In this document: positions 953 to 4,904 of the stretch, one piece after another
Layout: each line of letters opens with the position of its first letter
Numbering within the stretch: position 1 is the first letter of the stretch
DNA from: a phage
Length of the DNA stretch: 64,000 nt
Assembly (NCBI GenBank): GCA_026188615.1
Contig: GCA_026188615.1_4525.1
Reading direction: 5' to 3' (one strand)
Made by a program: the position numbers and the translations under genes
The notes under the pieces: generated by a model
The model's input: the letters and a program-made list of their open reading frames with translations, nothing else
Database searches by the model: none
Told to the model about the DNA's origin: nothing

Positions 953-1149
953 TTCTTCACCTTTTTGTTAATCAAACGTTTACGGTATACAACTTTTTCT
1001 TTTGCTTTAAACTTTGACCGAGCTGTCTCGGCTTTAGTCCATAGTAATCCAACTTCTTTAGGTTGTAAACCAATTTTTTGAGCAATTTCTACGAATGAAA
1101 ATCCCGCCTCATGTAATGTATAAACTTCAACTTCAGCTCTCATAATCAA
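949..1149 (-). CDS. Hypothetical small basic protein, 66 aa, possible helix-turn-helix
   Basis: ORF in track; lysine-rich C-terminus; HTH assignment is a guess from the pattern FVEIAQKIGLQPKEV. Confidence 0.4.
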   Translation of the reverse strand: MIMRAEVEVYTLHEAGFSFVEIAQKIGLQPKEVGLLWTKAETARSKFKAKEKVVYRKRLINKKVKK

Positions 1150-1221
1150 TCCCGTATTATTTGGTTTGTGCCATTATATACATCAATCTCAAGATGTGTT
1201 TTGTATGCTTTAAAAACGAAG

Positions 1222-1241
1222 AAAGGGGCCGAAGCCCCTTG
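1222..1241 (-). terminator. GC hairpin with tetraloop downstream of hoc, followed by a T-rich run on the minus strand
   Basis: aaaggggccgaagcccctt: 6-bp GC stem, CGAA loop; lies just past the hoc stop. Confidence 0.5.
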
Positions 1242-1242
1242 A

Positions 1243-2661
1243 TTATGGATATGTATAGATGATACCAGTTTCCAAAGCAGTTTTATGGATGATGTATCCA
1301 TTACGTGATTCTTGAACATCAACTTCTGGATAGTCTTTCATCATCTTCTGAAGCGTATAACGATGCAAGTAATACTTACTATCTGGATCTTCAGTTTTCC
1401 AATCTTTACCTTCTTCAGTCATTTTTTGGATTTCATCCATAACCCACCAACCGCACCAGATGTAAGCTGAAGTACGATGTGGAAGAGGATGAACATAAGG
1501 TAATTCACCTTCTGGTTCTGGAGCAACTTTATCGGTTACCTGAACTTGACCTTCTGCTGTAATAGTTTTGCTATCATAATCAGTAGCAGTAACGACGGCA
1601 GTCACTTCAATAGTTTGACTTCCAATAGATGAGGTATCAACGGTATATACATTAGTTGACCCTTCTACAGGAGAAGAATCTTTCTTCCATGAATACTCAA
1701 TTTGCGCTTCTTCTGGAGCATCAGTGACATTAGCGGTAAATGTAGCCGAAGCATCTTGCTGAACGTTAATAGAAGGAGGAGTCAATGTAACCCGTGGATT
1801 CATTGTCTTCTTATTAACCGTTAATGATACTTCATTCGAAGTAACTTCCTTTGCATCATAATCTGATGCGGTTACTTGGGCTACACATTTAATTCTTTTT
1901 ACTCCACTTGTAGTTGGAGTATAGCTAAATGTAGAGTTAGTTTCTCCACCAACCTGTGAATCATCTACATACCATTGATACGTAGCAGACGCTCCAACCG
2001 GTTGAGAAGCTAAGGCAGCAGTAAATTGAACTGGGGTTCCAATTACTCCAGCTGAAGGACTATTGGGAGTTACTGCCAACGTAGTTGTCTGTGTCTTTTT
2101 ATTAACAGTCAGTGACACTTCATTAGAAGTAACGCTTAGTGCGTCATAATCTGTTGCGGTTACTTGAGCCACACACTTAATTCTTTTTACCCCGCTTTCG
2201 GCAGGAGTGTAATTGAATGTAGCGTTAGTTGCTTCGCCAACAGGAGAATCATCTACATACCATTGATAAGTAGCGTTTGCGCCTGATGGCTGCGAAGCTA
2301 AAGCGGCGGTAAATTCAATAGCTGTTCCTATTACTCCAGCGTCAGGGCTATTAGGAGTTACAGCTAAGGTAGTCGTCTGGGTTTTGTTTTTGACTGTAAT
2401 AGTTGTACTAATTTCAGCTGTTTCAGCTTCACTGTCAGGAACTGGATTTGTTGCAACTACTTTAATAGTTTTTTGTCCAGCAGGACCCTTTAATACATAA
2501 CTAAAAGTTGCTTCAGCTCCATCTTGTGGAACATCATCCACAGACCAAGCATATGTAATAGGTCCATCTCCAGTTTGACCACTGGGTGTAGCAGTAAACT
2601 GCTTAGTCTCATCTATAACTCCAGTAGGTGTTTTAGGAGTTATATCAACTGTAAAAGCCAT
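1243..2661 (-). CDS. hoc: Hoc, highly immunogenic outer capsid protein, 472 aa, with an extra Ig-like domain
   Basis: Repeated Ig-like modules (TLAVTPNSP...YQWYVDD...VKRIKCVAQVTA.DYDA) followed by a conserved capsid-binding C-terminus (IWCGWWVMDEIQKM...YTYP); position between rnlB and inh as in T4. Confidence 0.8.
   Translation of the reverse strand: MAFTVDITPKTPTGVIDETKQFTATPSGQTGDGPITYAWSVDDVPQDGAEATFSYVLKGPAGQKTIKVVATNPVPDSEAETAEISTTITVKNKTQTTTLAVTPNSPDAGVIGTAIEFTAALASQPSGANATYQWYVDDSPVGEATNATFNYTPAESGVKRIKCVAQVTATDYDALSVTSNEVSLTVNKKTQTTTLAVTPNSPSAGVIGTPVQFTAALASQPVGASATYQWYVDDSQVGGETNSTFSYTPTTSGVKRIKCVAQVTASDYDAKEVTSNEVSLTVNKKTMNPRVTLTPPSINVQQDASATFTANVTDAPEEAQIEYSWKKDSSPVEGSTNVYTVDTSSIGSQTIEVTAVVTATDYDSKTITAEGQVQVTDKVAPEPEGELPYVHPLPHRTSAYIWCGWWVMDEIQKMTEEGKDWKTEDPDSKYYLHRYTLQKMMKDYPEVDVQESRNGYIIHKTALETGIIYTYP
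1816..2391 (-). repeat. Tandem duplication of an approx. 288-bp (96-codon) Ig-like domain unit inside hoc
   Basis: Protein residues approx. 91-186 and 187-282 are near-identical; the DNA of the two units is clearly similar but diverged. Confidence 0.7.
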
Positions 2662-2670
2662 AAGTTATCC

Positions 2671-3339
2671 TTATTTTAATGTTACGAAAGAAGAATTACG
2701 AGTTTCACGAATTAGAACTGATCCATCGCGATTAATATAATAAATTAAGCTAAATAATGTTTGGTGAGCAGAAGCATGCACAAAACTAGTTGGGCGAGAT
2801 TTCCAATCTGGGGTTTCGGCTATCCATTGATAAATCCACCAAGGAACAGTAACATATCCTGGGCCTTTGCCTAATTTAATGAGTGTAGGACTAAAATTTT
2901 CAGGCAGAACAAATTTTACTTCTTTATTTACCTCTGGTTCAGGCTCTTTTTCGGATTCAACAATCTGAGTAATTGCTTCTTCGAATTTATCATGGTCGAA
3001 TTCTTTTTCTTGTTCGACAACTTCTAATACTTCAACTTGTTCTGTTGGAGAATCAAACAACAGAATAGCTTCTTCTTTAACTTCTTCGTTGGTGAAATTA
3101 ACACCGTCCACATCATCTGCGGCAGTAATTAAATCGGTGATAGATAATCCATCAGTTTCAGGTAATGGTTCATCAGCCAGTGCGTTAAGAGCTTCTTCGA
3201 TATCAATAACAATATTATCGAATGATTTTGTTTTCTTAACACTAATGCCAAATTGTTCCGCATATTCAAACAGTTTAGCTTTGGCTTCCTTTTTATCAGA
3301 AAGAGCACGTAACTCTTCAATATAGTCTTTATCGATCAT
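2671..3339 (-). CDS. inh: Acidic protein, 222 aa; positional equivalent of T4 inh (prohead protease inhibitor)
   Basis: Position between hoc and uvsW, size and acidic composition match T4 Inh; sequence identity not verified. Confidence 0.45.
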   Translation of the reverse strand: MIDKDYIEELRALSDKKEAKAKLFEYAEQFGISVKKTKSFDNIVIDIEEALNALADEPLPETDGLSITDLITAADDVDGVNFTNEEVKEEAILLFDSPTEQVEVLEVVEQEKEFDHDKFEEAITQIVESEKEPEPEVNKEVKFVLPENFSPTLIKLGKGPGYVTVPWWIYQWIAETPDWKSRPTSFVHASAHQTLFSLIYYINRDGSVLIRETRNSSFVTLK

Positions 3340-3352
3340 AGTATTTCCTCAT

Positions 3353-3360
3353 TATAAATA
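3353..3360 (+). promoter_or_regulatory. Late promoter TATAAATA upstream of uvsW
   Basis: Exact TATAAATA approx. 30 nt upstream of the uvsW ATG. Confidence 0.55.
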
Positions 3361-3389
3361 TAACTATATTTATTACATGGTAATTTGAC

Positions 3390-4904
3390 ATGACTGACAT
3401 TAAAGTACATTTTCATGATTTTAGTCACGTTCGCATTGAATGCGACGAAAGTACGTTTTACGAACTTCGTGACTTTTTTAGCTTTGAAGCTGACGGGTAT
3501 AAATTTAACCCAAAATATCGCTATGGGCAATGGGATGGTAGAATTCGACTTTTAGATTACAATCGTTTGTTACCATATGGACTTGTAGGACAAATAAAAA
3601 AGTTCTGTAACAATATGAGTTATTCTGTATGGATTGACCCTAAAATCTTTGAGACTGAAGACCTTACCAGGGAAGATTTTGACGCATGGCTTTCTAAACA
3701 AGAAATTTATTCTGGCAACGCCAAAATTGAACCACATTGGTATCAAAAAGATGCAGTATATGAAGGACTAGTTAATCGTCGTCGAATTTTAAACCTTCCA
3801 ACATCAGCAGGTAAATCACTAATCCAAGCACTTTTAGCTCGGTATTATCTAGAGAACTATGAAGGTAAAATTCTCATTATCGTCCCTACAACAGCATTGA
3901 CAACCCAGATGGCTAATGATTTTGTTGATTATCGCTTGTTTAGTCATTCGATGATTAAGAAAATTGGCGGTGGTGCTGATAAAGCGGACAAATCTAAAAA
4001 CGACGCTCCAATTATTGTTGGCACATGGCAAACGGTAGTTAAGCAGCCTAAAGAATGGTTCTCTCAGTTCGGTATGATGATGAACGATGAATGTCACTTA
4101 GCAACAGGCAAAAGTATTTCTTCAATCATCTCAGGATTAAATAATTGCATGTTTAAATTCGGTTTATCTGGCTCATTAAGAGACGGAAAAGCCAATGTAA
4201 TGCAGTACGTAGGCATGTTCGGCGAAATCTTCCGTCCTGTTAGCACGTCTAAATTAATGGAAGACGGACAGGTAACTGAGCTTAAGATTAATAGTATTTT
4301 CCTTCGTTATCCGGACGAATTCACCGTTAAATTAAAAGGTAAAACATACCAAGAAGAAGTTAAAATTATTACCGGACTAAAACGTCGTACAAAGTGGATT
4401 GCTCAACTTTCGGTCAAATTGGCTAAGAAAGACGAGAACGCCTTTGTAATGTTTAAACACGTTACACACGGTAAAGAAATATTTGAAGCTATTAAAGAGC
4501 TTGGATACGAAAAAGTTTATTACGTATCAGGTGAAGTTGATACTGAAACACGTAACGCGCTTAAAGTCATGGCAGAAAATGGTAAAGGCATTATTATTGT
4601 CGCATCATATGGAGTATTCTCTACTGGTATTTCAGTCAAGAATCTTCATCATGTTATTTTTGCCCATGGTGTTAAATCAAAAATTATCGTACTTCAAACA
4701 GTAGGTCGTGTGCTTCGTAAGCACGGTTCTAAAGCTGTTGCTACAGTTTGGGATCTCATCGATGACGCAGGTGTAAAACCTAAATCATTAAATACTAAAA
4801 AGAAGTATACTCATCTTAATTACTTGTTAAAACACGGTATTGATCGTATCCAGCGTTACGCTGATGAGAAATTTAACTATGTAATGAAAACAATTAATTT
4901 ATAA
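3390..4904 (+). CDS. uvsW: UvsW, SF2 RNA-DNA/DNA helicase
   Basis: 504 aa; Walker A (LPTSAGKS), DExH (MNDECH) and further helicase motifs; near-colinear with T4 UvsW. Confidence 0.9.
   Translation: MTDIKVHFHDFSHVRIECDESTFYELRDFFSFEADGYKFNPKYRYGQWDGRIRLLDYNRLLPYGLVGQIKKFCNNMSYSVWIDPKIFETEDLTREDFDAWLSKQEIYSGNAKIEPHWYQKDAVYEGLVNRRRILNLPTSAGKSLIQALLARYYLENYEGKILIIVPTTALTTQMANDFVDYRLFSHSMIKKIGGGADKADKSKNDAPIIVGTWQTVVKQPKEWFSQFGMMMNDECHLATGKSISSIISGLNNCMFKFGLSGSLRDGKANVMQYVGMFGEIFRPVSTSKLMEDGQVTELKINSIFLRYPDEFTVKLKGKTYQEEVKIITGLKRRTKWIAQLSVKLAKKDENAFVMFKHVTHGKEIFEAIKELGYEKVYYVSGEVDTETRNALKVMAENGKGIIIVASYGVFSTGISVKNLHHVIFAHGVKSKIIVLQTVGRVLRKHGSKAVATVWDLIDDAGVKPKSLNTKKKYTHLNYLLKHGIDRIQRYADEKFNYVMKTINL

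Follow-up and report, generated by a model that had tools for sequence, protein, structure and literature searches.

The four-Ig-domain Hoc of a Mosigvirus probably represents an old, shared allele class whose D2 module number has been changed by recombination

Introduction

In T4-like phages, Hoc is a dispensable fibre located at the centre of the major-capsid-protein hexamers, from which its string of Ig-like domains projects outward. The protein serves as a display platform and has been implicated in adherence to mucus. T4 Hoc is a 180-angstrom monomeric fibre of four domains, bound at the hexamer centres via its C-terminal domain, and in Hoc homologs the number of Ig-like domains varies, reaching 10 in phage Muldoon (PMC10385173). 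A Hoc variant with fewer domains, that of phage PNJ-9, binds MUC2 through residues S183/L184/T185 of D2 (PMC11853027). According to Chin et al., as cited in PMC11853027, the D246N substitution in T4 Hoc alters mucin-glycan binding affinity.

A Hoc with four Ig-like domains is a known variant, already deposited and annotated often, and the variability of Ig number has been published. On D2 duplication or four-Ig Hoc proteins in T4, RB69 and Mosigvirus, the literature searched contained general statements alone, and no explicit account of a series of one to four D2 modules, or of a type-1/type-2 paralogy, was found in it. Here we describe the hoc gene of a 64,000-nt stretch of phage DNA (hereafter the window, numbered from its first letter). 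A sequence-only reading of the window had recognised this gene and had proposed that one of its Ig-like domains arose by recent duplication.

Results

The hoc gene of the window and its surroundings

A single intact ORF of 472 aa is present on the minus strand at 1243..2661. Its ATG, at 2661, is located 10 nt past the stop codon of the upstream gene, and an AAGGA Shine-Dalgarno sequence lies a few bases 5′ of it. A terminator-like hairpin follows the stop codon directly, and a terminator is annotated at the matching place after hoc in the record of phage WFbE185. The gene order rnlB / 24.2 / 24.3 / hoc / inh / uvsW, read from the ORF list, is that annotated in moskry, vB_EQ1, WFbE185, T4, RB18, JS09, PP01 and RB27. 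The features of the gene are the following:

1243..2661, minus strand: hoc coding sequence, 472 aa plus the stop codon at 1243-1245 (ORF list, phmmer and nucleotide identity to vB_EQ1).
1223..1240, minus strand: intrinsic-terminator-like hairpin, GC-rich and then a T-run, directly past the hoc stop codon (consensus scan).
2392..2661, minus strand: Ig-like domain D1, aa 1-90; aligns to T4 Hoc 1-90; all-beta in the AlphaFold model, pLDDT 85-94.
2104..2391, minus strand: D2 module 1, "type 1", aa 91-186; part of the tandem repeat; PKD and Ig_2 Pfam matches; pLDDT 84-95.
1816..2103, minus strand: D2 module 2, "type 2", aa 187-282; T4 residues 93-188 align here; counterpart of the single D2 of T4.
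1528..1815, minus strand: Ig-like domain D3, aa 283-378; aligns to D3 of T4 Hoc; Ig_3 and I-set Pfam matches at aa 289-373.
1246..1527, minus strand: C-terminal capsid-binding domain, aa 379-472; nearly identical in protein to T4 Hoc 283-376.

The late-promoter motif TATAAATA was looked for immediately 5′ of hoc and of inh and is absent from the minus strand at both places. It occurs on the plus strand at 3353-3360, about 30 nt 5′ of the uvsW start at 3390. In the window uvsW comes directly after inh (3340-3390), as it does in RB18, PP01, RB27 and the Mosigviruses. In T4 and in PST, the homing endonuclease gene segE adjoins inh; the stretches fetched from these two phages end inside segE.

The product is Hoc, as the sequence-only reading had stated: phmmer matches the T4 Hoc chain 5vf3_Z to the window protein at E 6.7e-221. 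The lengths given in that reading, 472 aa against 376 aa in T4, agree with the ORF list and with the T4 records (376 aa in PDB 5vf3_Z; hoc of 1131 nt in NC_000866). Two blocks make up the alignment. Residues 1-112 of the window protein correspond to T4 Hoc 1-112, and residues 189-472 correspond, without gaps, to T4 93-376, the last 94 residues being nearly identical. Since these blocks leave out one stretch, the difference from T4 amounts to exactly one D2-type unit, and the claim of one additional Ig-like domain stands. At the nucleotide level, the gene is 97% identical to the vB_EQ1 gene annotated as "Hoc-like head decoration protein", and the closest database record is 97.0% identical. Scores for the Pfam families PKD, Ig_2, PKD_3 and PKD_4 attain the curated cut-offs, with matches in two or more stretches. 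The protein thus shows three features of a T4-like Hoc (a C-terminal capsid-binding domain, an N-terminal string of Ig-like domains and the genome position), and we conclude that the gene encodes a Hoc with four Ig-like domains: D1, D2 type 1, D2 type 2 and D3.

Domain layout and structure model

In an AlphaFold model, for which 43 aligned homologs (a shallow alignment) were the input, residues 1-90, 91-186, 187-282 and 283-378 form four all-beta (beta-sandwich) domains with pLDDT values of about 85-95. The last 94 residues were modelled poorly (pLDDT <50), and for that reason the C-terminal domain is assigned by homology to the solved T4 domain alone; its nucleotide identity is 94% to T4 and 95% to RB69. 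When the model was compared with the PDB by Foldseek, the best matches were proteins with four Ig domains, such as Dscam1, Sidekick and ICAM-5 D1-D4. These are generic multi-Ig proteins, and Hoc itself was absent from the top 50 matches. The TM-scores were low because the orientations of the domains are flexible.

The near-identity of the anchor to that of T4 suggests that the window's Hoc would be placed as one monomer at the centre of each gp23 hexamer and would be dispensable. With two D2 modules, the fibre should be about 4-5 nm longer than the 18 nm of T4 Hoc, and the D2 surface, with its S-L-T motif, would be displayed twice. Each D2 module contains this SLT motif (residues 183-185 and 279-281), and D342, in D3, corresponds to T4 D246. 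The two SLT motifs and D342 make the window's Hoc a putative mucus adhesin (BAM).

The two D2 units are exactly tandem and strongly diverged

Tandem Repeats Finder, in agreement with the repeat finder, reports a 288-nt unit present in 2.0 copies at 1804-2379 (77% matched, no indels, score 702), which is the only sizeable tandem repeat within the 64-kb window. In codon register, the repeat comprises aa 91-186 (nt 2104-2391) and aa 187-282 (nt 1816-2103), exactly the two units of about 288 bp at 1816..2391 that had been read from the sequence. Comparison of 1243..2661 with itself, a check proposed at that time, gives a single sharp peak: at an offset of 96 aa the protein has 109 matches, against 55 or fewer at other offsets, which is far above chance.

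The two copies had also been described as near-identical, and this description has to be abandoned. Unit 1 and unit 2 of the window share 76-77% of their nucleotides and 78-80 of 96 residues (81-83% aa identity), and the longest exact in-register run between them is 23 nt. Nei-Gojobori estimates are pS 0.59, dS 1.15, dN 0.13 and dN/dS 0.11, synonymous divergence being near saturation. Between the units of six other two-unit hoc genes, dS ranges from 0.66 to 1.29. When D2 modules are compared between orthologs, dN/dS is 0.05-0.19, that is, purifying selection; as both modules are subject to it, the extra domain is kept as a functional part. An approximate time scale is provided by the blastn block between the window and T4 that extends from the N-terminal part of hoc through inh, the identity of which (77%) is similar to that between unit 1 and unit 2. 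By this rough clock, the units would be about as diverged as the two genera, Mosigvirus and Tequatrovirus. For the reading of sequences the case is a caution: tandem copies of equal length need not be recent.

Each unit is closest to the unit at the same position in other phages

The identity of each unit to its counterparts elsewhere was then compared with the identity of the units to each other. Unit 1 of the window is 97-98% identical in nucleotides to unit 1 of moskry, vB_EQ1 and WFbE185 and 84-86% identical to unit 1 of PP01, RB27 and ime09; to unit 1 of slur03 the value is 89%, and to the single unit of RB18 it is 90%. Unit 2 is likewise 97-98% identical to unit 2 of moskry, vB_EQ1 and WFbE185, and 91% identical to that of PP01 and RB27; across moskry, WFbE185, PP01, RB27 and ime09 the values range from 82 to 98%. 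Its identity to single units is 91% for the D2 of T4 and 95% for AV110 and JS09. The two units of one and the same gene share only 73-77% of their nucleotides in every phage tested.

The protein clusters give the same picture. Mean identity is 88% for unit 1 against unit 1, 88% for unit 2 against unit 2 and 78% for unit 1 against unit 2. Near-identical D2 copies were sought in 30 two-unit proteins (the window's and those of 29 clusters) and none were found, the two units of a protein being 72-83% identical in all 30. At the DNA level, 16 diagnostic nucleotide sites part type 1 from type 2 with almost no exceptions; at all 16 of them, unit 1 of the window is type 1 and unit 2 is type 2. An amino acid motif agrees with this division, SPVGEA in unit 1 versus SQVGGE in unit 2. 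Each copy is thus closer to the unit at the same position elsewhere than to its own neighbour, and the layout is therefore old and shared. Judged by these comparisons, the D2 pair consists of old paralogs, both kept under purifying selection, and did not arise by duplication in the window's phage. When RB69 was taken as an outgroup for dating, neither of its two D2-like domains favoured one type, the scores against type 1 and type 2 being about the same.

A Mosigvirus genome with a T4-type Ig cassette in hoc

Over its first 25 kb, the window shows 98% identity to the Mosigviruses WFbE185, G53, moskry, mogra, AV110 and JK45, and by this identity the window's phage is assigned to Mosigvirus, mar005p1 type. 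With RB69, blastn matches the window at 97% over 1-1518 (the flank and the Hoc anchor) and at 91% from 2321 (2321-4018); over 1519-2320, the Ig region, no blastn match between the two was obtained. The Ig region of the window is 87-95% identical to Tequatrovirus hoc genes. As this region is Tequatrovirus-like and its flanks are those of a Mosigvirus, a T4-type Ig cassette is present in a Mosigvirus backbone, which points to exchange of the Ig cassette of hoc between the two genera. Relatives with a backbone identity of about 98% have either form of hoc.

Number of D2 modules in related phages

The frequency of each form was estimated from evenly spaced samples and from clusters at 90% identity. 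Among 60 evenly spaced matches (of 659 phage records), 20 have a hoc of 1419-1420 nt, about 30 have one of 1131 nt and two have one of 849-852 nt. A search with unit 1 found 892 places in 617 records, and at least two places in 21 of 60 sampled records. The protein clusters were the best 120 from a search of 5.8 billion proteins: 80 are of 376 aa, two of 377 aa, 29 of 472 aa and one of 468 aa, and eight, of 568-570 aa, have three D2 units. An IMG/VR scan yielded 21 loci, mostly distant and too few for a population comparison, for which annotated GenBank records were used instead.

One, two, three and four D2 modules correspond to Hoc proteins of 376, 472, 568 and 664 aa, and a D2/D3 hybrid of 282 aa also exists. 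The comparison with Hoc of other T4-like phages, another check proposed in the sequence-only reading, accordingly finds the 472-aa form to be common, for instance in PP01, RB27 and ime09. From these samples, the share of related phage records with a two-module Hoc is estimated at about one third or more. The arrangement of type 1 followed by type 2 is a common allele class in Tequatrovirus and Mosigvirus, beside alleles with one, three or four modules.

Four-module and frameshifted forms were also observed. The hoc gene of slur03 (1073-3067 of its fetched stretch) encodes 664 aa with four D2 modules, the first of type 1 and the second of type 2; the third is a T4-like mosaic, and the fourth is 97% identical in nucleotides to unit 2 of ime09. 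In Yersinia phage PST, the hoc region (1001-2420 of its stretch) is 1420 nt long and frameshifted, the annotated CDS being shortened, and phage FriedrichMiescher has a frameshifted long form annotated as "Hoc part 1 / part 2". Either these frameshifts are errors of sequencing, or hoc, a dispensable gene, is a genuine pseudogene in these phages.

Signs of recombination in single-unit and hybrid genes

The repeat finder detected a shorter repeat that is common to the D2 modules and D3:

2143..2163 (D2 module 1), 1855-1875 (D2 module 2) and 1573-1593 (D3), minus strand: 21-nt repeat encoding VTATDYD.

This repeat is a likely crossover site, to judge from the genes in which domain number has changed. 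In AV111, hoc (1001-1849 of its stretch) encodes 282 aa, and its second domain is D2 up to VTATDYD and D3 beyond; the hybrid appears to result from recombination between the D2 and D3 copies of the 21-nt repeat, with deletion of what lay between them. The PNJ-9 "variant lacking Domain 3" may be related, yet not identical, to the AV111 case.

Single D2 units were typed at the diagnostic sites. That of RB18 has the type-1 state over sites 1-11, one site excepted, and the type-2 state over the remaining five; a deletion joining unit 1 to unit 2 would be expected to leave such a chimera. In AV110 and JS09, only the first two sites have the type-1 state, all later ones being type 2. D2 module 1 is the unit missing from these two close relatives, and the alignment of AV110 with the window has a clean 288-nt gap with an 18-nt overlap at the unit boundary. 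The D2 of T4 reads 1-2-1 at the diagnostic sites, and unit 3 of slur03 is mosaic as well. The T4 mosaic is no simple deletion product.

Discussion

The results presented are best explained, at a probability that we put at about 0.85, by an old and shared class of four-Ig hoc alleles in which the number of modules has been changed by recombination. Unequal homologous recombination between the 288-nt units would most likely be the process that changes module number; gene conversion among Ig modules probably contributes too, and ordinary recombination in co-infection would pass hoc alleles between phages. The two-module allele itself could stem either from fusion of two diverged single-module alleles or from duplication in situ followed by divergence.

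The former origin can be formulated as an explanation of its own: an unequal crossover joined type-1 and type-2 single-module alleles that had long been diverged, so that the 376-aa form is ancestral and the age of the units is that of the alleles. Both kinds of single-module allele exist, as 49 of the 83 single-unit clusters have a type-1 core and 26 a type-2 core. Of the 30 two-unit proteins, 29 have type 1 ahead of type 2, consistent with a single founding event, and the conserved ends of the units provide homology for a misaligned crossover. RB69 argues in the opposite sense, since it has a two-D2 layout with copies only 43% identical in amino acids, which suggests that the paired layout is very old. 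The RB18 unit, with its type-1 N-terminal and type-2 C-terminal part, is what deletion in a two-unit array predicts, and deletion of a tandem repeat is mechanistically easier than its creation. None of these points is decisive; on balance we consider fusion of alleles unlikely, although it is a serious contender.

A recent tandem duplication of D2 in the window's lineage, possibly adaptive, was what the sequence-only reading had proposed, and the units being exactly tandem, both of 288 nt and indel-free, with one of them missing in T4, does invite that reading. It is refuted by a nucleotide difference of about 23%, a dS of about 1.15 and the position-specific orthology of the units, each of which resembles the unit at its own position in another genus far more than it does the adjacent unit. 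The copies are neither near-identical in DNA nor low in dS, and many relatives have the two-unit layout. In the 30 two-unit proteins the identity of the units does not exceed 83%, and the allele class is present in about one in three related records, if not more. An extreme, localized hypermutation that would reconcile a recent event with such divergence has left no sign (dN/dS 0.11). We therefore regard a recent duplication as highly improbable. That reading had allowed that the longer Hoc might instead be the common ancestral form in close relatives; the longer form is indeed common among them, and it may also be ancestral.

An assembly or sequencing artefact that made a false tandem copy, tandem repeats being a classic source of assembly errors, is for practical purposes ruled out by the divergence of the units, as a 23% difference between the copies is incompatible with reads of one unit having been collapsed or expanded, and also by the intact reading frame and by the same architecture in many independently sequenced phages from several countries.

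It is conceivable, if somewhat doubtful, that D2 module number (1-4, plus the D2/D3 hybrids) is a recombination-driven polymorphism kept by selection. If this were true, module number would tune fibre length and binding valency, much as repeat number does in bacterial adhesins. For the window itself the finding has little importance, as the 472-aa Hoc is common and variable Ig number has been published; the missing account of the 1-4 module series is a small descriptive gap that would not surprise specialists. Since Hoc is a display platform implicated in mucus adherence, the alleles with one to four modules form a ready-made test series. With it, the effect of fibre length and valency on adherence, immunogenicity and display could be tested, which gives the series a modest practical value.

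Comparison with known Hoc proteins

Hoc proteins of another T4-like group, retrieved from IMG/VR, offer a different route to the same domain number. In loci L007 and L008, of 472 and 471 aa, the fourth Ig-like domain is a copy of the D3 type and not of D2; in L007, domains 3 and 4 are identical at 54 of 93 residues. The group also includes Hoc proteins of 377 aa (L009) and 282 aa (L013). A D3-type fourth domain indicates that this other Hoc lineage gained a domain independently, which, if confirmed, would point to convergence.

Serratia phage Muldoon has a distant Hoc homolog of 1174 aa which, like the window's Hoc, combines a C-terminal anchor with a variable Ig string, in this case of 10 Ig-like domains (PMC10385173). 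The Hoc proteins of PNJ-9 (283 aa) and AV111 (282 aa) belong to the same family and also vary in domain number, but they have lost a domain rather than gained one; their D2 carries the S-L-T motif, as do the D2 modules of the window. RB69 Hoc (471 aa, Mosigvirus) has four Ig-like domains with two D2-like ones in tandem, as in the window; its D2 pair is 43% identical in amino acids and, unlike that of the window, has no member that clearly belongs to type 1 or to type 2.

T4 Hoc (376 aa; PDB 5vf3, 8t1x and 8t9r) shares with the window's protein the family, the genomic position, homologous D1, D2 and D3 domains and a near-identical C-terminal domain. It differs in having one D2 module where the window's Hoc has two, and this single D2 is a mosaic, mostly of type 2 with a type-1 C-terminal end. 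The closest counterparts are the 472-aa Hoc proteins of vB_EQ1, moskry and WFbE185 (Mosigvirus) and of PP01, RB27 and ime09 (Tequatrovirus), whose architecture is identical to that of the window. In the moskry record a repeat_region is annotated inside hoc. The hoc genes of these six phages are 89-97% identical to that of the window in nucleotides over the whole gene, and they differ from it by allelic substitutions only.
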